A stretch of 64,000 nucleotides of DNA, taken from the NCBI GenBank assembly GCA_030651475.1, contig JAUSEW010000002.1:19927-83926 (forward strand), written 5' to 3'. Shown piece after piece: positions 2,843-32,079 of this stretch; the first letter of the stretch is position 1, and every line of letters begins with the position of its first letter. The translations under genes and the position numbers were made by a program. Below the pieces are notes generated by a model. The model was not told the origin of the DNA. It did no database searches and saw nothing but the letters and a program-made list of their open reading frames with translations. This DNA is from Candidatus Levyibacteriota bacterium. GTDB lineage: Bacteria; Patescibacteriota; Microgenomatia; Levybacterales; UBA12049.

Positions 2843-3649
2843 ATGAACAAAAGTTTGCAAGAACTAAGACAAAGCTTCGTCAGGTTCTTTCTCAAGGCGG
2901 AAAAAGCAAAATTTACAGATAGGGAAGGACTAACTTTGGTTACAGTTGAGTCTCAAACGAAAGGATTAGGGATTGCAAAACAAATATTATATTTGTTAAC
3001 GGAGAAAAACCCAAATACCGTGCTCTTCCTTTCCGGAGGAAAAACGCCGGAAGATTTATACAGGCAGATTACCGAAGAAGCAAGGCTAAAAGTCGAAGCC
3101 GTTGCGATGGTGGATGAACGATTTGGACCCCGTCTGCATAACAACAGCAATGAAAGAATGATTGGGGAAACAGGATTTTGGTCGTATCTTGAAAAGAAGA
3201 AAATTTCGTTCTATTCAATCTTACGATTACACCCCAAGGGTGTAGCCTCAGACTTTGTGAGAGATTATGATAGAAAGGTTAAATATCTTCTAGGGCATTT
3301 TTCAAAAAAGATCGCAGTTTTGGGCATTGGAAAAGACGGTCATACGGCAGGAATAGCTCCCAACAGAAAAGATTTTATTAATCCTCTTTTTTCGAAATCT
3401 TTATTGGTTGGGTCATTTAAGGATCATAGGAGTATGGATGAGGGAGGTTTTGGGACAAGAATAACCTTAACCTTTGAAGCATTAAGGAAAATGGATATAT
3501 TATTGGTGTTGGCTTTTGGAGAAGAAAAAAAAGAGGCTCTTAGAAAAATGTTCAATAGGGGATCATTGGAGGAAATTCCAGCAAGATTTTATACGTCGGA
3601 ACCGCAAATTGTTCAAAGAACTATTTTAATTACGGATCAGAAAGTATAA
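2843..3649 (+). CDS. pgl: 6-phosphogluconolactonase
   Basis: LFLSGGKTP and GIGKDGHTAGIAP motifs of the NagB/Pgl family. Located immediately upstream of zwf. Contains an in-frame palindromic insertion at 3227-3250. Confidence 0.75.
   Translation: MNKSLQELRQSFVRFFLKAEKAKFTDREGLTLVTVESQTKGLGIAKQILYLLTEKNPNTVLFLSGGKTPEDLYRQITEEARLKVEAVAMVDERFGPRLHNNSNERMIGETGFWSYLEKKKISFYSILRLHPKGVASDFVRDYDRKVKYLLGHFSKKIAVLGIGKDGHTAGIAPNRKDFINPLFSKSLLVGSFKDHRSMDEGGFGTRITLTFEALRKMDILLVLAFGEEKKEALRKMFNRGSLEEIPARFYTSEPQIVQRTILITDQKV
3227..3250. repeat. GC-rich palindromic element (family 2) inserted in frame in pgl
   Basis: TTACACCCCAAGGGTGTAGCCTCA. A near-identical copy lies at 57405-57429 in intergenic DNA. Confidence 0.7.
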
Positions 3650-3658
3650 TATAGTTAT

Positions 3659-5122
3659 ATGCAGAGTTCTTTTGTAATGGTTATTTTTGGTGCAACCGGT
3701 GATTTGGCGCAAAACAAACTTATCCCCTCGCTTTTTTCTCTTTTCAAACAAAAACAACTACCAACAGACTTTTTTATAGTAGGTTTTTCAAGAAGAGAAC
3801 TTAGCGACAGCGATTTTGGATCATATTTCAAAGCTCTTCAAGATAAAGAAGGATGGAATGAGTTTGCCAAACATTTATCTTACCAAAAAGGAAGCTTTGA
3901 TGACATAAGCGGATATTCAGAGCTTATAGATAAACTTAAAAAACTTGACGACAAAATCGGCGCGTGCGTAACTCGCTTTTTTTACCTTGCCACTCCTCCG
4001 GATCATTATCAAAATATTCTTAAGTTTTTGCGGGAAACTAAACTATCGGAGGGGTGCGGTCCCCACTTCGCCCCGCTAAGCGGGGCTTCGAGGAGCAAGC
4101 AAGAGAGTAAGTGGACAAGGATAATTATTGAGAAACCTTTCGGTAAGGATCTAGAGACTGCAAAAGCATTGGATATGAAGCTTTCCGAAGTCTTTGAGGA
4201 GAAACAAATTTTTAGGGTGGATCATTACTTGGGTAAAGAAACAATGCAAAATATTATTGCTTTTAGATTTGCCAATGGAATTTTTGAGCCGGTTTGGAAT
4301 AAAAATTTTATAGACCATGTGCAAATTACTTGGGCGGAGGAACAAGGTGTAAAAGAAAGGGGAAATTTTTTTGACGGAGTAGGATTACTTCGGGATGTCG
4401 GACAAAATCATTTGATGCAGCTTGTTACGGCAGTTGCTATGGAAAGCCCGAAGAGTTTTTCCAAAGAAGGAGTCAGAGATGCAAGAGCAGAGGTTATTAA
4501 AAAAATCCGTTGCGTAGAATCAAGTGAAGTTTCGAAAAATATAGTTAGGGGTCAATATGAAAATTATAGATCGGAAAAAAATGTAGCGAAAAATTCCAAT
4601 ACGGAAACATTCGTTGCTATGAAAATTTTTGTTGATACGGATCGGATGGCAGGCGTGCCTTTTTATATAAGAATGGGTAAAAAAATGCCCAAAAATTTAG
4701 TTGAAATATCTGTTGTTTTTATACAGACTTGCCACATTTTGTTTAAAGAATATGGCTGTCCTGAAATAGGAAATGTTTTGGTGTTTAGAATTCAGCCGGA
4801 TGAAGGAATTAATCTTCGCGTCATCGCAAAAAAGCCCGGCGCCAAGCTTTCTCTAGGAACCGTTAATATGAATTTTTCCTACGAAGATCAATTTAGGACA
4901 AATGGAGCAGATGCGTACGAGAAAGTGCTTCTTGATATTTTTGCAGGCGATCAAATGCTTTTCAATAGATCGGATGAGTTGGAAAGTTCATGGGAATTTA
5001 TAACAAAAATTTTGAAAGGATGGGCTAATTTAGGGGTTGAACCCCTAAAGTATAAGGCGGGAACTTGGGGACCGGAAGAGGCGGAGGCGCTAATCGAAAA
5101 AGACGGGAGGAAGTGGATATAA
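3659..5122 (+). CDS. zwf: glucose-6-phosphate 1-dehydrogenase
   Basis: IFGATGDLA NADP motif, IIEKPFG and RVDHYLGKE active-site motifs. Confidence 0.9.
   Translation: MQSSFVMVIFGATGDLAQNKLIPSLFSLFKQKQLPTDFFIVGFSRRELSDSDFGSYFKALQDKEGWNEFAKHLSYQKGSFDDISGYSELIDKLKKLDDKIGACVTRFFYLATPPDHYQNILKFLRETKLSEGCGPHFAPLSGASRSKQESKWTRIIIEKPFGKDLETAKALDMKLSEVFEEKQIFRVDHYLGKETMQNIIAFRFANGIFEPVWNKNFIDHVQITWAEEQGVKERGNFFDGVGLLRDVGQNHLMQLVTAVAMESPKSFSKEGVRDARAEVIKKIRCVESSEVSKNIVRGQYENYRSEKNVAKNSNTETFVAMKIFVDTDRMAGVPFYIRMGKKMPKNLVEISVVFIQTCHILFKEYGCPEIGNVLVFRIQPDEGINLRVIAKKPGAKLSLGTVNMNFSYEDQFRTNGADAYEKVLLDIFAGDQMLFNRSDELESSWEFITKILKGWANLGVEPLKYKAGTWGPEEAEALIEKDGRKWI
4049..4094. repeat. GC-rich hairpin element inserted in frame in zwf
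   Basis: ~46-bp GC-rich segment in an AT-rich gene with internal stem GCCCCGC-TAA-GCGGGGC. Encodes ~15 extra residues (GCGPHFAPLSGASRS) just before the conserved IIEKPFG. Confidence 0.6.
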
Positions 5123-5233
5123 AGAAAATTCAAAAATCAAATCTCAAAAATCAAAAATAAAGTTTGTAATATTGGGATTTGTAATTTAGAGTTTATTTAG
5201 GATTTAAATATTAGAAATTAGAATTTAAAAAGT

Positions 5234-5557
5234 ATGAATATAACGTTTGATGAGTTTAAAAAGCTTGATATTAGAGTTGGGAAGATTTTGAGTGCGGAGA
5301 AAATTGAGGGAACGGATAAATTGTTGAAATTGGAAGTTGATTTCTCTGATTTTCGCCGTCAAATTGTGTCGGGAATAGCACAGTTTTATAAACCCGAAGA
5401 TTTGGTTGGGAAACTTTCTCCATTTATTCTTAATTTAGAACCAAGGGTAATGCGTGGAGTTGAAAGTCAGGGAATGCTTATGGCAGTTGATGTTGATGGC
5501 AAAGCAGTGCTTTTGAAACCTCTCAAAAAAGTCCCCGCAGGAAGTGCGATAGGATAA
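5234..5557 (+). CDS. tRNA-binding domain protein (CsaA/Trbp111-like)
   Basis: KLDIRVGKI...SQGML EMAP/Myf-type tRNA-binding fold. Confidence 0.7.
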   Translation: MNITFDEFKKLDIRVGKILSAEKIEGTDKLLKLEVDFSDFRRQIVSGIAQFYKPEDLVGKLSPFILNLEPRVMRGVESQGMLMAVDVDGKAVLLKPLKKVPAGSAIG

Positions 5558-5561
5558 AAAT

Positions 5562-6449
5562 ATGAAATTTGGGTTTATTGGATTGGGAAAAATGGGTTCA
5601 AGAATGGTTGGAAAACTTCTTCAAGAAGGGCACGAGGTTGTGGCGTGGAATCGATCGGATAATGAATTAAAAAATACAGAAACCGTTGAAGAGTTAGTAA
5701 AGAGTTTAGGAAAACCTAGAATTGTTTGGTCGATGGTGCCGGCAGGGGAGGCAACGGAAGATATTTTAGATGAAGTTTTAAAGTTTATAGAAAAAGGCGA
5801 TATCGTTATCGACGGAGGAAATTCTCATTTTAAAGATACTCAAAGAAGATTTGATAACTTCAAGAAGAAGGGAATTAGATTTTTGGGAATAGGAGTATCG
5901 GGTGGGATTATTGCGGCAAAAGAAGGATATCCGATGATGGTTGGAGGAGATAAATCAGCATATGAACTTATCAAACCTATTTTAAGCTCACTGGCGAAAC
6001 CGCATGGCGGACATGAATATTTCGGTATTGGCGGAGCAGGACATTTCGTCAAAATGCTTCATAACGGAATAGAGTACGGAATTATGCAAAGTCTTGGAGA
6101 GGGGTTTGAGGTTTTGGAAAAAGCTCCATATAAATTAGATTTATTGAAAGTCGCCAAACTTTGGCAAAAAGGAACGCTTGTTTCCGGTTTTATGCTCGAC
6201 AGAACAGTTGAAGTTTTTGCAAAAGACCCGACGCTATCCGATATTCAAGGCATTATTGCCGAATCCGGTGAAGCACGGTGGACTATTGATCAGGCCAAAG
6301 AAGAAGGAGTAAGAGTTGAGATTATTGAAAGGTCTTTGGATTACAGAAAAAGGTCGCAAAGAGATAAAAAAATCCAGAATTCTTTTACGGCCAAATTAGT
6401 TGCCGCCCTCCGTAATGCTTTCGGAGGTCACAAAGTTAAAAAGATTTGA
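5562..6449 (+). CDS. gnd: 6-phosphogluconate dehydrogenase-like, short NAD(P)-binding form
   Basis: FIGLGKMGSRM Rossmann motif and 6PGDH-family central region, ~295 aa. Ends with TGA. Confidence 0.7.
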   Translation: MKFGFIGLGKMGSRMVGKLLQEGHEVVAWNRSDNELKNTETVEELVKSLGKPRIVWSMVPAGEATEDILDEVLKFIEKGDIVIDGGNSHFKDTQRRFDNFKKKGIRFLGIGVSGGIIAAKEGYPMMVGGDKSAYELIKPILSSLAKPHGGHEYFGIGGAGHFVKMLHNGIEYGIMQSLGEGFEVLEKAPYKLDLLKVAKLWQKGTLVSGFMLDRTVEVFAKDPTLSDIQGIIAESGEARWTIDQAKEEGVRVEIIERSLDYRKRSQRDKKIQNSFTAKLVAALRNAFGGHKVKKI

Positions 6450-9119: not shown

Positions 9120-9995
9120 ATGAAAGAGAGAGAAGTGTCGCAATTTGGATCAAATCCAGAATTCGCAATAAGCAAAGATCAAAAGGAACGATTTATTACT
9201 CGTAGAATGGTAGTAAAAATTGGAAGTAGTACCTTGTCTAAGGATGGTGATCCGCTCAATAGGGTGTTTATGGATAGTATTGCTTGCCAATCAAGCAGGC
9301 TTTTTAAAAGTGGAGTTGAGCTTCTTATTGTTTCATCAGGAGCTGTGGTAAGTGGGGATTGGCTAATTAGAGAAAGGGGGATCAATATAAATCAACTTTT
9401 TTCAGGTCACCTGCAGAGCTTAACGGAAAAAGAGGGGAAAGTTTTTTTAGATAGAGTAAGGGCATTTTATGGTCAGGCAGAGTTAATGAGCACATGGAGA
9501 GAGGCTTTTGCACATTACGGAATTTTGGCAGGCCAGGGACTCTATGAAGATAGAAATCTGAAAAAGGAAAACACGAAGGATGTTTTGGAGTCTTGTTGTA
9601 AAATCGGCGTGCCAATAATTAACGCAAACGATGCCGTGAGTGATTTCGAGATGCGACAATTTGCACTTTCTGCCGATAACGATAAGCTTGCCGGGTTTAT
9701 TGCAAGAACCGTAAATGCTGATACTTTGATTCTCTTAACAGATGTTGATGGGGTATTGGATAAGAATGGAGAAGTACTTTCTCACGTTGATAGGCTTGAA
9801 GATATCCAAGAGCTTATAAAAGATACAAGCGGTAGGCCGGGCGGTATGTGGGGTAAAGCCATAGTCGCCAAAACTGCGGCAAGGGATGATAAGCGCGCTT
9901 TTATTGCCAGCGGAAGAGAAAAGGACGTATTGGTTCGAATTGCAAAAGGAGAAAATGTGGGAACTAGATTTAAGAAAGGCTGGATGTTATACTAA
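9120..9995 (+). CDS. amino-acid kinase family protein, glutamate 5-kinase-like
   Basis: VVKIGSS, NANDAV, ADNDKLAG, LTDVDGV and GRPGGMWGKAI correspond to ProB motifs. The true start may be the Met at 9207. Confidence 0.65.
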   Translation: MKEREVSQFGSNPEFAISKDQKERFITRRMVVKIGSSTLSKDGDPLNRVFMDSIACQSSRLFKSGVELLIVSSGAVVSGDWLIRERGININQLFSGHLQSLTEKEGKVFLDRVRAFYGQAELMSTWREAFAHYGILAGQGLYEDRNLKKENTKDVLESCCKIGVPIINANDAVSDFEMRQFALSADNDKLAGFIARTVNADTLILLTDVDGVLDKNGEVLSHVDRLEDIQELIKDTSGRPGGMWGKAIVAKTAARDDKRAFIASGREKDVLVRIAKGENVGTRFKKGWMLY

Positions 9996-9999
9996 AAAT

Positions 10000-10353
10000 A
10001 TGATAAAGACGGTAATTAGTTACGAGGATTTTGATAAAGTAGATATTCGGATCGGGAAAATTATAAAAATAGAAGATTTTCCAGAAGCGAAAAAACCTGC
10101 CTTTAAGCTTACTATCGATTTTGGTTCGGAGGTTGGTATAAAAACTTCCAGCGCACAATTTGTTAAAAACCAGACAAAAGAAGATTTGATGGGGAGGAAA
10201 GTTGCATGCGTTGTAAATTTCGCGCCACGACAGATTGGTCCATTCGTATCGGAAGTTCTCACATTGGGTCCTGACGATGGAACAGAAGATGTAAGCAATT
10301 GGGTCGTGTTGACGCCGTTTAAAGACGTGCCAGTGGGAAGGAATGTAAGGTAA
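10000..10353 (+). CDS. tRNA-binding domain protein (CsaA/Trbp111-like), paralog of 5234..5557
   Basis: KVDIRIGKII...FKLTIDFG EMAP-type fold. Internal ATG at 10000 follows the stop of the upstream kinase. Confidence 0.7.
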   Translation: MIKTVISYEDFDKVDIRIGKIIKIEDFPEAKKPAFKLTIDFGSEVGIKTSSAQFVKNQTKEDLMGRKVACVVNFAPRQIGPFVSEVLTLGPDDGTEDVSNWVVLTPFKDVPVGRNVR

Positions 10354-16539: not shown

Positions 16540-16570
16540 TTATGACCCTTCGACTTCGCTCAGGGTCATA
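16540..16570. repeat. palindromic element (family 1) in prs 5' region
   Basis: TTATGACCCTTCGACTTCGCTCAGGGTCATA lies after a TTGATA-17-TAGAAT promoter. Confidence 0.7.
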
Positions 16571-24314: not shown

Positions 24315-25343
24315 ATGTTCTATCCAAAATATACTATTACCGATCGGCTTCTTGCTAATATAAAAAGAATTAATATCTTAGTAAGCGAATTGAACAATAG
24401 ACGGTTTCCTCATGTTGTTTTATTAGAATTAGAGAGAGTAGCTAGGGAAGTATCTGCTTATGCTTCAACTAGCATTGAGGGTAATCCATTGCCCCTAACA
24501 GAAGTCAAAAAAATTCTTAAATCAACGCCCGTACACATACGAGACAGCGAGAGAGAAATATTAAATTATAATCAAGCACTGCAAGATTTAAATAGAAAAC
24601 TTAAGGAAGAGAGTGCGCGTTTATCCCTTGACCTTATTTTACAAATTCAAAAACAAGTTATGAGGGATTTATTGTCGGAATCTGAAGCAGGAAGACTTCG
24701 AGAAAAACCGGTAGTTGTTAACGATCCGCGAACGGGACAGGTTGTATATTTGCCGCCTGAAATTAAAGACGTAAAACGCCTTATGGAAGATTTGATTTCG
24801 TTTGTCAATTCGAATAGGGAAGCTATTGATTCCCTCATTCTTGCCGGTATTTTCCACAAACAAATGGTTATTATTCATCCCTTTATGGATGGTAACGGAA
24901 GAACAACTCGTCTTGCAACTAAGGTGTTACTTGCTGAAATGGGACTTAACACATTTAATCTCTTTAGCTTTGAAAATTACTATAATAAAAATGTTACAAA
25001 GTATTTCCAAACAGTAGGGGAATTTGGCAATTATTATGATTTAACCGAAGAAATTGACTTTACTTCTTTTCTTGAATATTTTACTGAAGGAATTATCGAT
25101 GAGCTCTTACGAGTAAAAAAAATACTGCCAAAATTTGCGGCAACTCCGCAAACGCAATTACAAACTTATCACTTGAAATTACTTAAGCATATTCGAGAAG
25201 AAGGTTTTATTAACGATAGGAATTATGCTCAATTGACAGATCGAGCTAAAGCAACAAGGACACAAGACTTTAAAAAGCTGCTAAAATTGGGTTTAATTGA
25301 AAAAAAAGGGAAAGGTAAAGCCACATATTATATTTTGAAATAA
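24315..25343 (+). CDS. fic: Fic family protein (class II, AMPylase-type motif)
   Basis: HPFMDGNGRTTR Fic motif, N-terminal inhibitory-helix motif STSIEG ([ST]xxxE[GN]) and C-terminal wHTH-like tail. Confidence 0.85.
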   Translation: MFYPKYTITDRLLANIKRINILVSELNNRRFPHVVLLELERVAREVSAYASTSIEGNPLPLTEVKKILKSTPVHIRDSEREILNYNQALQDLNRKLKEESARLSLDLILQIQKQVMRDLLSESEAGRLREKPVVVNDPRTGQVVYLPPEIKDVKRLMEDLISFVNSNREAIDSLILAGIFHKQMVIIHPFMDGNGRTTRLATKVLLAEMGLNTFNLFSFENYYNKNVTKYFQTVGEFGNYYDLTEEIDFTSFLEYFTEGIIDELLRVKKILPKFAATPQTQLQTYHLKLLKHIREEGFINDRNYAQLTDRAKATRTQDFKKLLKLGLIEKKGKGKATYYILK

Positions 25344-26566: not shown

Positions 26567-27223
26567 TTATAAAGCTGCGACCGAAACTGTAAGAATTTCG
26601 CCGTCATAATCAAACTTAAATTCTATGGGTACATTTTTATTATTGGTTATATAGAGATTTTGTACCTGATTTGAATAGCTTTTGCCAGGATCATCATAAA
26701 TAGCTACCCCAAACTCTTTTGGAATTTCCGGAATAGGCGTAAAATCATGGTTGGTAGGCGCTTTTGCCTCAAGACCTGCATCTTTCGCAGCCCAATAAAT
26801 AATTGAAGCTAAATGACAAATTCCATCACCTACAAGATAACCGTCGGATTTGAAGCCCTCCTGTGAATTAAAATGAGCATTTGTAGTTTTTACAATCTTC
26901 TCTTGGTATTCCGGCAACACATCATCGTGGAAAGAAAATACCTCGTTTGGTTTTAAAGTCCATTTATAATGGAAAGGTTTTCCTATCTCTTGCCAGTTTA
27001 TGCTCGCGTTTTTGCCAACTTTATCCGCCATATAGGCAATATTTAGCAAAATGTTGTCTTTGAAAATATCATTTACGAATTTATTGGAATAACGTTTTTC
27101 CAAAGATATGGCACGAGAGGATAGCACCTGTTCAGAGGGTTTATTTTGTTGGGGAAGGTTTTGTACGATAGGCAGGTTTATGCCAAAAAACAGCACAGCT
27201 CCTAAAAGTGTTGATGTAAACAT
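26567..27223 (-). CDS. VanW-like protein with N-terminal membrane anchor
   Basis: GDGICHLASIIYWAA resembles the VanW GGGVCQ motif. N-terminal hydrophobic segment. Confidence 0.5.
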   Translation of the reverse strand: MFTSTLLGAVLFFGINLPIVQNLPQQNKPSEQVLSSRAISLEKRYSNKFVNDIFKDNILLNIAYMADKVGKNASINWQEIGKPFHYKWTLKPNEVFSFHDDVLPEYQEKIVKTTNAHFNSQEGFKSDGYLVGDGICHLASIIYWAAKDAGLEAKAPTNHDFTPIPEIPKEFGVAIYDDPGKSYSNQVQNLYITNNKNVPIEFKFDYDGEILTVSVAAL

Positions 27224-27284
27224 AAGTGTTGCAGTATATCACACTATAAGCCCAAAGTCAAGTATAGACTATTCGATTTAGAGC

Positions 27285-27314
27285 TTGACAAGACGCCTTA
27301 TAGTGTGATAATAT
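27285..27314 (+). promoter_or_regulatory. leaderless promoter, conserved motif copy B (DGR target gene)
   Basis: TTGACAAGACGCCTTATAGTGTGATAATAT. ATG at 27324. Confidence 0.55.
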
Positions 27315-27323
27315 CTTAAAATT

Positions 27324-28109
27324 ATGACAATGCGACACATTGAAAGCAAAGAAGGATTAGGAGAATTCGTTGGGGATCCCAATGGCGATAAAGCCAAATT
27401 AGCAATAACTCTCATAGAGGGCGCAAGAAAATGGAGGGAGACATTTGGAGATATTTCTTTGCCATCTGTTACAGCTTCAGTTGAAGTAAAACCATTTTCT
27501 CCAGAAGCAGTTACTAATTATTGGCGAACAAAATTACAAGCAGATGGTAAAAGAATAGGACTTTCTATTTCCGTGCCAGATTGTAGTTGGACAGAAGCAG
27601 AAATAAGAAAGCCAATGGTAGATGTTAAAGGAAACGAAGTTCCTTCAATGTTAGTTTATGTTCCGCAAGAGCTTATGGGAAAAGAAGGATTAGTAAGATT
27701 AGGACAGATGTATCCAAAGATGAATAACTGGTCTGTTCAAGAAGACACTAGCGTGCAAAATAGTCCTGATGCAAACAAAAAAGGCGGATGGGTTAAAGTA
27801 GAAGCAATTGTTGATGCCCCAAATCTTAATACTACTCAGGAAGATCTTGAACAGCATGCCAAAGATAAAAAATATTTCGCACAAACATTAAATACTTTTA
27901 TTCTTGCTTCTCAAGCAAATAAAGATTTAACAGGACGTTACTTAGATGAAGGATCGACATGGTCTCGTTTGCTTGGTTCTCGTCGCGCGAGCGGTGTGGT
28001 TCATGCCGACTTCGGTTCGGGTGGGTACTTGTTTGTCGGTTGGGGTCTGGGTCCGCAGGGTCACGGTTCGGGCATAGGCGGGCGTTTTGAAGAAGTGAAG
28101 AAAGCTTAA
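27324..28109 (+). CDS. DGR variable (target) protein, C-terminal CLec/FGE-like variable region
   Basis: C-terminus carries the VR (..GSTWSRLLGSRRASGVVHADFGSGGYLFVGWGLGPQGHGSGIGGRF..). Confidence 0.8.
   Translation: MTMRHIESKEGLGEFVGDPNGDKAKLAITLIEGARKWRETFGDISLPSVTASVEVKPFSPEAVTNYWRTKLQADGKRIGLSISVPDCSWTEAEIRKPMVDVKGNEVPSMLVYVPQELMGKEGLVRLGQMYPKMNNWSVQEDTSVQNSPDANKKGGWVKVEAIVDAPNLNTTQEDLEQHAKDKKYFAQTLNTFILASQANKDLTGRYLDEGSTWSRLLGSRRASGVVHADFGSGGYLFVGWGLGPQGHGSGIGGRFEEVKKA
27971..28097 (+). repeat. DGR variable repeat (VR)
   Basis: 127 bp aligned to the TR without gaps. 26 of 28 mismatches are at TR adenines. Confidence 0.85.
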
Positions 28110-28430
28110 ACCTTTGCCTCTTTGTCCTTTTAGCTCCTTTGACTTTCGTTTTTTTATAGTCCTCCCAAACTATTTTATGCTACAATACTCCTGAGAGTAG
28201 GTTAATACATTCTTAAGCTAAGACTTTAGAATTACCGAAATCCTTGATTTTCAAAATTTTGTTCGATTTCTGTTGTTTATGGATAACAGAAGAATACAAA
28301 AGAAAAACAAGACACTTCTTGCCTAATGCTTGCGAAGATGTCCTGAGCTTGTCGAAGGACTACTTCCAAATAAAATACAACAGTAAGAGTAATCAAACTG
28401 TGGTGGTAATTGATGGCATAAGGCAAAAAA

Positions 28431-28557
28431 GCTTGGTTCTCGTAACGAGAGCAATGTGGTTAATGCCAACTTCAATTCGGATGGTAACTTGAATGTCAAT
28501 TGGAATCTGAATCCGCAGAATCACAATTCGAACATAGGCGGGCGTTTTGGAGAAGTA
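28431..28557 (+). repeat. DGR template repeat (TR)
   Basis: AAY-codon-rich (Asn) copy: ..NVVNANFNSDGNLNVNWNLNPQNHNSNIGGRF.. Confidence 0.85.
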
Positions 28558-28564
28558 GCTTGTT

Positions 28565-28861
28565 TTAAATTTGAGTTAATGATCTTTTCCATCCTCCAAG
28601 CATCCTGCCAACTTCTTGGAGGAATTGTTCTAACTGTAGATATTTATTATTGTCAAGAGATTGAACATCTTTAGCCAGTCTGAGCAATATCTTTAAAAGA
28701 TCTAATGAGATGATAGCTTTTTCAAGATAAAGAAGCTTTTTGTCTTTCTGACTTGTTCCTGCCATAAGGATTAGTTCGAAAATTGTAAGCGTTAGACTAT
28801 CCAGCTTTTGTCCTAAAGTGTAGCGGTCTTTTTTGGGGAAAAGCTTCAGGTATCCATACAA
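28565..28861 (-). CDS. avd: accessory variability determinant (Avd), four-helix-bundle family
   Basis: C-terminal EVGRMLGGWKRS matches Bordetella phage Avd EVGRILGSWIAR, and FPKKDRYTLGQKL is the helix-2 signature. TTG start. The frame stays open upstream through the (AC)n tract. Confidence 0.75.
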   Translation of the reverse strand: MYGYLKLFPKKDRYTLGQKLDSLTLTIFELILMAGTSQKDKKLLYLEKAIISLDLLKILLRLAKDVQSLDNNKYLQLEQFLQEVGRMLGGWKRSLTQI

Positions 28862-28911
28862 TAATTTGTAGAAATCATAGAATCTTTGAATAAGAGGTAT
28901 GTCAAAGTCAG

Positions 28912-28932
28912 GTGTGTGTGTGTGTGTGTGTG
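28912..28932. repeat. (GT)10 dinucleotide microsatellite between divergent avd and RT
   Basis: GTGTGTGTGTGTGTGTGTGTG. Confidence 0.9.
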
Positions 28933-28947
28933 AATATCTTTATCTGT

Positions 28948-30012
28948 ATGCATATTGATACATTCGACGGTGCCGAGCACCGCTCAGTATCAACCCTGAG
29001 CGAAGTCGAACGGGTTGATTATTCCAAGCTTATCTCAATAGAAAATTTATTTCAAGCATGGAAAGAGTTTAGAAAAGGAAAAGCTAAGCGTTTTGATGTT
29101 GCGGAATTTGAAAGGAATTTAGAAGATAATTTATTTGAATTACATTTAAAATTGAAAAATAAAAGTTATAAACATGGAGGTTACGAATCATTTTATGTTC
29201 ACGACCCAAAACAGCGGCATATTCATAAAGCAAGTGTTATAGATAGGGTAGTTCATCATCTGCTTTACACCTTTTTGTATAAGTTGTTTGACAGAGTATT
29301 TATTTATGATTCCTATTCCTGCAGACTTAATAAAGGAACCCATAAAGGAGTAAAGAGATTAGCGGAACTTACAAGAAAAGTTTCTAAAAACTATACAAGA
29401 CCTTGTTTTGCTTTAAAATTAGATATTAAAAAGTTTTTTGCCAGCGTTGACCATGAAGTTTTACTTACCTTACTTAAGAAAAAGGTTAAAGATAAAGATA
29501 TTATTTGGTTGTTAGTACAGATAATCAATAGTTTTTACTCGGATAAAGGAGAAGGGAAAGGAATGCCTCTTGGCAATTTAACCAGTCAGGTTTTTGCCAA
29601 TATTTACCTCAATGAACTTGACCAGTTTACAAAACATAAGTTAAAAGTAAAATATTATCTTCGTTATGCAGATGATTTTCTGTTTTTATCAAAGAATAAA
29701 GAGTTATTGTGTAAATATATTGACGTATTAAGACAATTCCTGAGCAACGGACTTAAACTTGAACTTCATCCTAATAAGATTATCTTTCGTAAATTAGAAT
29801 GGGGAATTGATTTCTTAGGCTACATAGTTTTACCTCATTATATTTTGCCAAGGACAAAAACTAGAAAAAGGATTTTTAAAAAATTAAAGGAAAATGTTGG
29901 TTCAGAAAACTTTAATCAATCCTTGCAATCCTATTTAGGATATTTAGGGCATGCCAGCAGTTTTAAAATAGCCCAATCTCTACTTTACTTTTACCAAAAA
30001 TATAGCTTATGA
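28948..30012 (+). CDS. DGR reverse transcriptase
   Basis: N-terminus ENLFQAWKEFRKGK resembles Brt. GNLTSQVFANIYLNELD carries the DGR SQ motif. RYADDFLFL is the YxDD motif. Start could instead be GTG 28912. Confidence 0.85.
   Translation: MHIDTFDGAEHRSVSTLSEVERVDYSKLISIENLFQAWKEFRKGKAKRFDVAEFERNLEDNLFELHLKLKNKSYKHGGYESFYVHDPKQRHIHKASVIDRVVHHLLYTFLYKLFDRVFIYDSYSCRLNKGTHKGVKRLAELTRKVSKNYTRPCFALKLDIKKFFASVDHEVLLTLLKKKVKDKDIIWLLVQIINSFYSDKGEGKGMPLGNLTSQVFANIYLNELDQFTKHKLKVKYYLRYADDFLFLSKNKELLCKYIDVLRQFLSNGLKLELHPNKIIFRKLEWGIDFLGYIVLPHYILPRTKTRKRIFKKLKENVGSENFNQSLQSYLGYLGHASSFKIAQSLLYFYQKYSL
28990..29018. repeat. palindromic element (family 1, inverted orientation) within the RT 5' region
   Basis: TCAACCCTGAGCGAAGTCGAACGGGTTGA. 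Confidence 0.65.
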
Positions 30013-30019
30013 TGGATAT

Positions 30020-30700
30020 ATGAAGAGAGTTTCGATTTTCCTTTCAATAGTTTTCCTTCTTGTTTTGGGAGTTTTCGTCTACAAGCACAATACTGATAAC
30101 ACATGCGGGAATTCAATTTCCTGCGCCAAAAATCTTACGGGTAAATACGAAAATACGAATTCGGGGATATTTTTGGGCAGGAAAGTAAGTATTCCCAGCG
30201 AAGTCGCGGATAAGATCCTTGCAGGGGGAGTAAGGTCGGTTTTGGGCGATACAACTGTTCAGAAAAGAATTGAAGTTAATCTTAACACCCAGCATCTTTA
30301 CGCATTTGAGGGTAATGAAGTCGTTATGGATTTTCCCATATCATCCGGCAAATGGTATCCTACCCCAACAGGCACATTTCATATTTGGTCGAAATTTCGC
30401 TTCGTGCGCATGGAGGGCGGAAATCCGGCAGCTAATACGTATTATAATTTGCCCAACGTACCTTTTGTGATGTTTTATTACAATGACGACATCGTACAGT
30501 CCAGAGGCTTTAGTCTGCACGGAACCTATTGGCATAATAATTTCGGTCATCCGATGAGCCACGGGTGCGTAAATATGAGAACAGAAGATGCTCAAAGAGT
30601 TTATTATTGGTCTAATCCGCCTGTTTCGGAGAATTCCACTTTCGCCAAAAACAACGAAGGAACAGAAATTATTGTTTACGGACAAGCTCCGGAGGAATAA
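30020..30700 (+). CDS. L,D-transpeptidase (YkuD domain), signal-anchored
   Basis: HGT...SHGCVNM catalytic motif and N-terminal TM. Confidence 0.8.
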   Translation: MKRVSIFLSIVFLLVLGVFVYKHNTDNTCGNSISCAKNLTGKYENTNSGIFLGRKVSIPSEVADKILAGGVRSVLGDTTVQKRIEVNLNTQHLYAFEGNEVVMDFPISSGKWYPTPTGTFHIWSKFRFVRMEGGNPAANTYYNLPNVPFVMFYYNDDIVQSRGFSLHGTYWHNNFGHPMSHGCVNMRTEDAQRVYYWSNPPVSENSTFAKNNEGTEIIVYGQAPEE

Positions 30701-31447: not shown

Positions 31448-31690
31448 ATGGAACAAACAGTAATGCAAGTTGGCAATTCTTTAGCAGTCACTTTACCCAA
31501 GCAATTTGTTGACGCTAAAAAAATAAAAGCAGGACAAAAAATGCTTGTGGATGCAGACAATGATCTCTCTGTGGTTCAAATAAGAACAAAGAATTCTAAA
31601 GCCTCCAAGATTACTCCCGAATTTAAGAACTGGCTTGACGCATTCAATACCCGCTACAAGACAGCGCTTACTGAGCTTGCAAAAAAGTGA
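31448..31690 (+). CDS. AbrB/MazE-family antitoxin
   Basis: VGNSLAVTLPK swapped-hairpin motif. Overlaps doc by 4 nt. Confidence 0.7.
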   Translation: MEQTVMQVGNSLAVTLPKQFVDAKKIKAGQKMLVDADNDLSVVQIRTKNSKASKITPEFKNWLDAFNTRYKTALTELAKK

Positions 31691-32079
31691 GACAGACTAA
31701 GCACCTTATCCTCGACGAAGTAATTGCGATACACGATAGCATGATCGAACAGTATGGAGGAAGTTTCGGAATTCGCGATATTGGACTACTTCAGTCAGCG
31801 ATTAGCAGGCCGCAGGCATCATTTGGGGGCGTTGATCTTTATCCAACTATATTTGATAAGGCTGCCGCTCTTTTTCATTCATTGATGTTCAACCATGCTT
31901 TCATGGATGGAAACAAGAGGACAACCATGACAACAACTGCCAGATTCCTTGCAATAAATGGTTACTTGGTTGTAGTAGAACAAAGAGAATTTGTAGATTT
32001 TCCTCTTCGAGTGGAGAATAAACACCTCTCTCTTGGGGAAATCGTCGCTTGGCTGAAGAAACATACAAAGAAGATGTAA
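31687..32079 (+). CDS. doc: Doc toxin (Fic-fold kinase)
   Basis: HAFMDGNKRT Doc motif, 130 aa. Confidence 0.8.
   Translation: MRQTKHLILDEVIAIHDSMIEQYGGSFGIRDIGLLQSAISRPQASFGGVDLYPTIFDKAAALFHSLMFNHAFMDGNKRTTMTTTARFLAINGYLVVVEQREFVDFPLRVENKHLSLGEIVAWLKKHTKKM

Follow-up and report, generated by a model that had tools for sequence, protein, structure and literature searches.

A non-triplet repeat at the start of avd as a candidate phase-variation switch in a diversity-generating retroelement of Levybacteria

Two described kinds of diversity-generating retroelement (DGR) stand closest to the locus reported here. In the DGR of the Bordetella phage BPP-1 (mtd-avd-TR-brt), sequence passes in an adenine-specific manner from a template repeat (TR) to a variable repeat (VR) in the C-terminal, C-type-lectin-like part of the target protein; its reverse transcriptase (RT) is bRT, and Avd is required together with the RT for cDNA synthesis, as given in the available text of a preprint on this system (bioRxiv 10.1101/2023.10.23.563531). 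Among DGRs of the candidate phyla radiation (CPR), the architecture called B3 accounts for 90% and is found almost nowhere else, according to the available text of Wu et al. 2018 (PMC5758913). The locus described here lies in a 64-kb stretch of contig JAUSEW010000002.1 from a Candidatus Levyibacteriota bacterium (64,000 nt, the whole of the DNA analyzed, hereafter “the window”). It is a chromosomal DGR, an ordinary new member of the CPR-type DGRs. What is new, as far as established, is a slippage tract in avd and a 5' RNA domain paired with the TR end; the DGR itself is routine. From comparisons of related loci we propose, with a probability of about 0.6, that the conserved avd tract is a translational (frameshift) phase-variation switch. 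In the window this tract would read OFF.

How does the locus compare with these systems? With the BPP-1 element it shares adenine-specific TR-to-VR transfer, an RT homologous to bRT that carries an I/LGxxxSQ motif, a four-helix-bundle Avd homologous to bAvd (4dwl), a VR at the C-type-lectin-like C-terminal end of the target, and VR and TR 3' ends that differ at a non-adenine position, as do IMH (initiation of mutagenic homing) and IMH*. It differs in that BPP-1 is phage-borne, whereas the window element is chromosomal and has a simple-sequence repeat at the 5' end of avd. Moreover, the RNA domain of BPP-1 is a 3' “Sp” spacer in the available text of the preprint named above, whereas here it precedes the TR, and BPP-1 has a GC-rich inverted repeat after the VR (as described in the available text of PMC5758913) that the window lacks. 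The DGRs of CPR/Patescibacteria, as described in the available text of PMC5758913 and, for DGR clade 2, of PMC8144416, have in common with the window the organism group, the RT clade, a motif-less target and the layout. This layout appears to be B3, an equation that we make here, as the available text of PMC5758913 does not spell out the B3 gene order; on that equation the architecture is identical to that of CPR B3 DGRs, and the junction repeat and RNA features are additions seen here. The coordinates of all features are collected in Table 1.

Where does Avd begin? A preliminary description of the window, made from the sequence alone, had reported a complete DGR in which a 98-amino acid protein with an Avd-like C-terminus follows the TR. 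The protein is real, as its open reading frame (ORF) scores 62.1 bits against Pfam bAvd (cut-off 40) over profile positions 15-106; its gene occupies the minus strand in a head-to-head arrangement with that of the RT, and “follows” therefore needs correcting as to orientation. The word “complete” likewise needs qualification, since at (GT)10 the upstream ATG of avd is out of frame with the body of the gene. The TTG at which the 98-aa ORF starts sits inside helix 1. The closest in-frame relative (P0166) was modelled with AlphaFold2 (AF2): a disordered tail is predicted for residues 1-13 and helix 1 for residues 19-35, which suggests that the tract encodes a floppy N-terminal tail; on this model a product begun at the TTG would lose 12 of the 17 helix-1 residues. 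The alignment of bAvd (4dwl) with the window Avd also starts at helix-1 residues.

In fact the avd frame remains open to 28939. It includes the codons for an (HT)n stretch and for the beginning of helix 1, DIPLIQRFYDFYKLL (from 28903), and upstream of the TTG it contains no in-frame ATG, GTG or TTG, including between the tract and helix 1. An ATG does occur 50 nt before the helix-1 codon, and its frame is open through the tract, offset by +2 from that of the body. Either (GT)9 or (GT)12 would place this ATG in frame. Removal of one GT unit gives a 128-aa Avd, MHTDKDIHTHTHTPDFDIPLIQ..., with which the bAvd score rises to 69.3 bits (profile positions 4-106) and that for NCBIfam DivGenRetAVD from 65.3 bits (98-aa ORF) to 77.7 ((GT)9 reconstruction). 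Because (GT)10 puts the ATG out of frame with the body, the element is probably switched off as sequenced. The leader MHTDKDIHTHT... also begins full-length Avd proteins in the databases: among the 120 best homologues, 44 begin with M..K[DE]I(HT)n, 7 carry PPP and several (QDRTG)n or (QTDR)n, and a minority have short leaders without a tract. About 26 of these 120 are, like that of the window, ORFs of 91-100 aa that start inside helix 1.

How widespread is the repeat at this junction? The (GT)10/(CA)10 tract is the sole repeat of such size in the window. A metagenome scan with the RT yielded 80 loci, in which a junction repeat was scored in a 220-nt interval that runs from upstream into the RT match; it was present in 69 of them, and only 3 such repeats occurred in their other ~403 kb. 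Read on the avd strand, the repeats are of five types, (CA)6-21, C9-11, (CAGA)n, (AATC)n and (CAGGA)n, so that the unit is 1, 2, 4 or 5 nt and never 3 or 6. Tracts are 12-43 nt long and lie 4-27 nt from the helix-1 codon (52-63 nt in four loci with a GC-rich insert), and the linker that leads from the tract into helix 1 is conserved as protein, xDF(T/S)L-DIPIF. The upstream ATG is open through the tract in every repeat-bearing locus. Of 63 repeat-bearing junctions (62 related loci and the window), 18 have this ATG in frame and 45 do not. The layout of target-VR, TR, reversed avd and RT was found in every related locus in which avd was detected, and in none was avd on the RT strand. The RT and avd starts share or abut a palindrome (ATGCAT at 28948-28953 in the window; ATGCAT, CATATG or GCATGC across L005-L077), leaving no intergenic DNA, and each promoter must therefore lie inside the other gene.

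The repeat also varies between otherwise nearly identical loci. Loci L005-L088 come from the Rifle and Hainich samples. L016 and L017 differ over 3118 nt solely by one GT unit, and L054 and L055, over 5890 nt, by one 5-nt unit and one VR base at a template adenine. Two GT units and two substitutions separate L031 from L032 (9005 nt compared), one G and four substitutions L082 from L084 (2267 nt), and one GT unit, 11 VR positions and 21 substitutions elsewhere L005 from L006 (5085 nt). Simple-sequence repeats are the basis of phase variation at the contingency loci of Neisseria, Haemophilus, Campylobacter and Helicobacter. The junction resembles these loci in having a non-triplet repeat in the 5' coding region, here between the start codon and the body of the avd ORF, in unit-number polymorphism and in the coexistence of in-frame and out-of-frame alleles; the first of these features is present at the avd gene of the window itself, and the polymorphism and both frame states are seen among its relatives rather than in this genome. 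Contingency loci control surface or restriction-modification genes, whereas the gene under control here would encode a hypermutation accessory protein in uncultivated CPR hosts.

The preliminary description rested its identification of a DGR on adenine-specific mismatches between the two repeats, and this holds. The VR aligns with the TR over 127 nt without gaps and with 28 mismatches, of which 26 fall at TR adenines (20 A>G, 3 A>C, 3 A>T); in the remaining two, T in the TR stands against G in the VR at 28025, and G in the TR against A in the VR at 28090. Given 37 A in 127 nt, the hypergeometric probability of this concentration is P = 3e-16, and a tabulation by TR base gave no spread over all four bases. 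This concentration at adenines confirms the VR/TR repeat. The altered adenines occupy codon positions 1 and 2, with the last base (28097) as the sole exception, and all 13 AAY codons of the TR are altered in the VR, 8 of them to GGY (Gly). When both strands of the 64 kb were scanned with the TR, with A read as N, a single VR copy was found. The VR and TR 3' ends are plausibly an IMH/IMH* pair by analogy with BPP-1. No GC-rich inverted repeat or stem-loop of the BPP-1 type follows the VR, where the DNA fold z-score is +2.

Adenine-specific VR/TR pairs were likewise present in at least 44 related loci, and across 45 non-redundant pairs, the window included, template adenines were replaced by G 413 times, by T 180 times and by C 130 times. 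The A>G bias has two readings, the misincorporation spectrum of the RT or selection for Gly, Asp and Arg. Two of the related loci, the nearly identical contigs L043 and L044, differ at 21 sites, 20 of them in the VR and 17 of those at TR adenines, which indicates that elements of this lineage diversify in nature. Some relatives may have more than one VR. In L074 two VRs (3461-3582 and 5780-5901) correspond to one TR and flank the RT. In two further pairs of nearly identical contigs the few substitutions cluster ~1 kb downstream of the RT, between L031 and L032 at 5850 and 5856 and between L065 and L066 at 5703-5715, and these clusters may be second, remote VRs.

The earlier reading of the RT as a DGR-type enzyme with an SQ motif and YADD is borne out as well. 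Among solved structures in the PDB its best match is 8ub7, the bRT from the Bordetella phage DGR (E 7e-41), and the motif LGNLTSQVFANIY (LGNLTSQ) aligns with IGSLTSQLFANVY (IGSLTSQ) of bRT. A grouping with group II intron or retron RTs was examined, and bRT was found to be far ahead instead (3.5e-16 for group II intron RTs). Among the NCBIfam models, group II and other RT families matched, all below threshold. RT homologues at E<=1e-40 numbered 7379 among 8000 candidates scored; public assemblies held no exact-sequence match of the window's RT or target. Unique to the window is an in-frame 66-nt insertion near the RT N-terminus, at a point where relatives run directly from MH(S) to DYSNLI. The GC-rich hairpin CCTGAGCGAAGTCGAA[C/G]GG with short inverted arms occurs twice in the window, at 28954-29019 and, between genes, at 16546-16564, and resembles a miniature mobile element or a REP-like (repetitive extragenic palindromic) element; the copy in the RT lies just upstream of the avd ATG. 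An RT start at GTG codons inside the tract was also considered and is unnecessary, as relatives carry an ATG immediately before DYSNLI.

The second addition to the known architecture lies between the repeats. The 333-nt spacer from VR to TR (28098-28430) is conserved across loci with quite different targets and includes a structured RNA domain just 5' of the TR. RNAalifold places 34 pairs in this domain, 32 of them with compensatory changes. In a MAFFT alignment 90.7% of cells are paired, versus 42-55% when slid, and covariation is 0.784 versus at most 0.24; none of 500 shuffles reached the observed values. A long-range duplex joins a strand with a near-invariant AGACACU to the end of the TR: in 26 loci, 83.2% of cells are paired versus 34-56% when slid, covariation is 0.316 versus at most 0.14, and 7 pairs have compensatory changes, with one C mostly unpaired. 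The extended -10-like element that is a candidate promoter for this RNA was not detected by a two-hexamer promoter scan. On the 3' side of the TR, nothing beyond Avd coding is conserved in the relatives compared; a 9-bp stem there (28592-28600/28615-28623) was set aside, since it is not conserved in relatives and Avd coding explains the conservation. An 82-aa ORF (28244..28492) that overlaps the structured RNA and runs into the TR is treated as spurious and is probably no gene.

Is this RNA a member of a known family? Weinberg et al. 2017 placed the RT-10 motif in the spacer between TR and RT of BPP-1 and guessed that other RT motifs serve DGRs (PMC5737381). A search of the window at Rfam gathering thresholds returned tRNA only. 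The RT-16 model (RF03019), likewise a structured RNA beside an RT gene, matches 28267-28432 over its full length at 32.1 bits (E 0.004), below its gathering score of 50, which none of 20 related loci reached. The two have a AUAAAAUACA-hairpin-GGUG core in common, and the window RNA, with this weak match, behaves like a relative of RT-16 and is not classed as a member. It differs from the Rfam entry in that here the RNA is placed exactly and AGACACU pairs with the TR end. We infer that, compared with BPP-1, the functional RNA has a permuted order, in which the structured domain precedes the template and is clamped to the 3' end of the template. Such an arrangement would explain how avd can be inverted right after the TR.

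Table 1. Features of the DGR locus, in positions of the window
Feature	Position	Strand	Remarks
Promoter-like site of the target gene	27285..27312	+	TTGACA-16-GATAAT with TG, 11/12 matches; consensus scan only
Target (variable protein) gene	27324..28109	+	261 aa
VR	27971..28097	+	last ~42 target codons, before EVKKA-stop
IMH-like 3' end of VR	28074..28097	+	ATAGGCGGGCGTTTTGAAGAAGTG; differs from TR end at 28090 (non-A) and 28097
Extended -10-like element	28178..28186	+	TGCTACAAT (lineage consensus TGCTATAAT); candidate TR-RNA promoter; conserved block in 16-locus alignment
Structured non-coding RNA domain	28260..28430	+	ends at first TR base
RNA helices	28260-62/28296-98, 28268-77/28282-91, 28319-30/28415-26, 28334-37/28364-67, 28380-84/28397-401	+	
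Long-range duplex, upstream strand	28305..28318	+	contains AGACACU; pairs with 28553-28566
TR	28431..28557	+	AAY-rich
Long-range duplex, downstream strand	28553..28566	+	last 5 TR nt and 9 nt beyond; overlaps complement of avd stop
avd reading frame	28565..28939	-	annotated ORF 28565..28861, TTG start
(GT)10/(CA)10 simple-sequence repeat	28912..28931		5' end of avd
Upstream ATG of avd	28951..28953	-	MHTDKDI-(HT)n; out of frame by 2 nt with (GT)10
DGR-type RT	28948..30012	+	354 aa; LGNLTSQ and YADD; RVT_1 81 bits
GC-rich in-frame insertion, RT N-terminus	28954..29019	+	66 nt; hairpin ATCAACCC...GGGTTGAT, flanked by TTGAT repeats

What does the element diversify? The target has no Pfam or NCBIfam match. 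Its N-terminal ~53 aa are variable and disordered, and residues 55-260 form a conserved body with a C-type-lectin/FGE-like end; the VR covers codons ~217-258 of the 261. An AlphaFold model based on an alignment of the target's homologues, with a confidence (pLDDT) of about 97 over residues 55-260, matches FGE, TvpA, Mtd and C-type-lectin domains (CTLDs), in agreement with the fold that the preliminary description had suggested, and the target is therefore predicted to be C-type-lectin/FGE-like. Homologues numbered 45 in 5.8 billion proteins; all those with a source name are from Candidatus Levybacteria, and they combine a conserved body with hypervariable residues at adenine-templated positions. 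A search of genomes with an 8-sequence alignment of the target found three loci, none with an RT, Avd or TR nearby. Target-family genes with diversified C-termini stand alone on four contigs, L001-L004, where no RT, Avd or TR occurs in the sequence available; for L001-L003, which have the target at 5001-5693, this comprises 5 kb on each side, and the sequence of L004 stops 79 nt past the gene. Two paralogues 4 kb apart are present in L002, the second at 9454-10014. These lone genes may be distant targets of a DGR located elsewhere or the remains of a cassette since lost. One target variant, P0010, is identical across 29 contigs.

Several neighbours of the cassette deserve mention. Cell-wall genes flank it on both sides, a VanW-like gene at 26567-27223 and, at 30020-30700, one for a YkuD L,D-transpeptidase. 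Two 14-nt arms separated by 46 nt (27237-27250 and 27297-27310), TATCACACTATAAG / CTTATAGTGTGATA, form a perfect inverted repeat that overlaps the -10 regions of two divergent promoter-like sites, one for the VanW-like gene (minus strand) and one for the target (plus strand), and may be a shared operator of these two genes. A 342-aa Fic-domain protein is encoded upstream of the DGR (24315-25343), and a MazE-like antitoxin and Fic/Doc toxin pair 1.4 kb downstream of the RT (31448-32079).

How might the parts work together? Slippage at replication would alter the tract by whole units and bring the avd ATG into or out of frame. Since Avd is needed for cDNA synthesis in the Bordetella system, such a switch in avd would toggle the DGR between a diversifying and a locked state, and Avd, and with it mutagenic homing, would be turned on and off stochastically and heritably. 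An RNA would be transcribed from the conserved extended -10 element (~28180) and would consist of a ~240-nt structured 5' domain, the TR and, paired with the conserved AGACACU of that domain, a short 3' tail. With the tract ON, RT and Avd would copy the TR into cDNA, misreading adenines, and the cDNA would replace the VR, so that the target would acquire a new ligand-binding face at its C-type-lectin-like end. With the tract OFF, as in the window, a VR diversified at some earlier time, with 26 of 37 adenines changed, would now be frozen. In this scheme we infer from sequence the transcription start, the priming, the states of Avd expression and the present-day activity.

A number of observations weigh against a frameshift switch. 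The share of junctions in frame, 29%, is the expectation for random frames and does not discriminate between models. All five members of the closest sub-lineage, the window included, read OFF. L043 and L044 are strongly different in their VRs even though both are OFF. The NCBIfam Avd equivalog cut-off is missed even by the reconstructed protein (77.7 versus 80 bits), and direct reading of the DNA before the upstream ATG revealed no evident Shine-Dalgarno-like sequence. The minus-strand ATG itself is in part a by-product of the palindromes at the RT start (ATGCAT, CATATG). No prior description of an avd repeat or a phase-variable DGR was found in the literature searched, which does not cover Paul et al. 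2017.

Could the repeat act on transcription instead of the reading frame? In a working DGR its length could tune promoter geometry, DNA structure (Z-DNA or a G-rich form) or the mRNA leader (5' untranslated region) of avd and RT, and Avd synthesis could begin at the TTG at 28861 or at a non-canonical start beyond the tract, so that expression would vary by phase or as a rheostat without any frameshift. Repeats with units of 1, 2, 4 and 5 nt are known from promoters in other bacteria, the avd and RT starts abut or overlap with the tract ~20-40 nt from the RT start, and the in-frame share and the missing Shine-Dalgarno-like sequence just noted both suit this explanation. It is nevertheless unlikely in our judgment. 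Tract lengths of 12-43 nt are too wide for a -35/-10 spacer, and together with the failure to find a consensus promoter at the junction they argue against the tract as a promoter spacer, a model that was therefore rejected. The linker between tract and helix 1 is kept as protein, a canonical start after the tract is absent, many database Avd proteins read through (HT)n or PPP behind a conserved K[DE]I leader, and unit lengths are never a multiple of three.

Permanent inactivation is a live alternative too, given decay among the closest relatives and a sub-lineage that is OFF throughout. The cassette would then be a decaying or fossil DGR, its VR/TR differences a record of past activity, avd a gene frameshifted at a slippery repeat, the repeat a tolerated hotspot, and the copy in the window one that will not diversify again. 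In L085 the RT is almost wholly deleted and reduced to residues 303-345, in L089 it is split into ORFs of 240 and 97 aa even though avd is in frame, the tract of L086 is interrupted (CACACACACGCACAG) and out of frame, and L087 and L088 are both out of frame; the solitary target genes of L001-L004, whose available flanks lack RT, Avd and TR, the variant shared by 29 contigs and the insertion peculiar to the window RT point the same way. Yet in the window the RT ORF is intact with its insertion in frame, the TR, structured RNA and long-range duplex are intact, the target ORF is open through the VR, and a one-unit change restores the avd frame. A repeat of five types at the same position in 69 of 80 loci is, moreover, hard to explain without selection for mutability, and we regard decay as slightly less probable even than an effect on transcription. 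As for the possibility that the locus is no DGR at all, with a chance or duplicated repeat beside a group II maturase or retron RT, the top NCBIfam RT model is indeed a group II intron RT/maturase (141 bits versus a cut-off of 300) and the NCBI protein name is “reverse transcriptase/maturase family.” This is refuted for practical purposes by the adenine bias, by a bRT match 25 orders of magnitude ahead of group II RTs, by the presence of an Avd gene and by the dozens of related loci with the same VR/TR geometry, and Rfam found no group II intron RNA.

A frameshift switch in avd is thus the reading we prefer, and it can be joined to the RNA into a wider proposal for this CPR clade: that DGR hypermutation is gated by the avd repeat and served by an RNA circularly permuted relative to that of Bordetella, with an AGACACU-clamped 5' domain for protein binding and priming. 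For this combination we see roughly even odds. Neither avd-repeat gating nor a permuted DGR RNA was found in the literature searched. The available text of PMC5758913 and PMC8144416 mentions neither the junction repeat nor the upstream RNA domain nor the pairing with the TR end, and that of a 2024 BMC Genomics survey and of the bRT preprint holds nothing relevant on DGR phase variation or repeats.

Taken alone, the DGR of the window adds one member to a class already well described; its target family is confined to Levybacteria. The structured RNA and its duplex supply a defined RNA with which a CPR DGR could be reconstituted, and they suggest a possible role for the orphan RT-16 motif of Rfam. 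If the switch is real, many of the “truncated” Avd ORFs of 91-100 aa would be off-phase alleles and not short proteins, a warning for annotators. How DGRs avoid overwriting good variants is, to our knowledge, largely unknown. The conserved avd tract offers a concrete, testable answer on DGR control across the CPR DGR clade: if our reading is true, a lineage could hold on to a useful receptor variant and resume diversification later.

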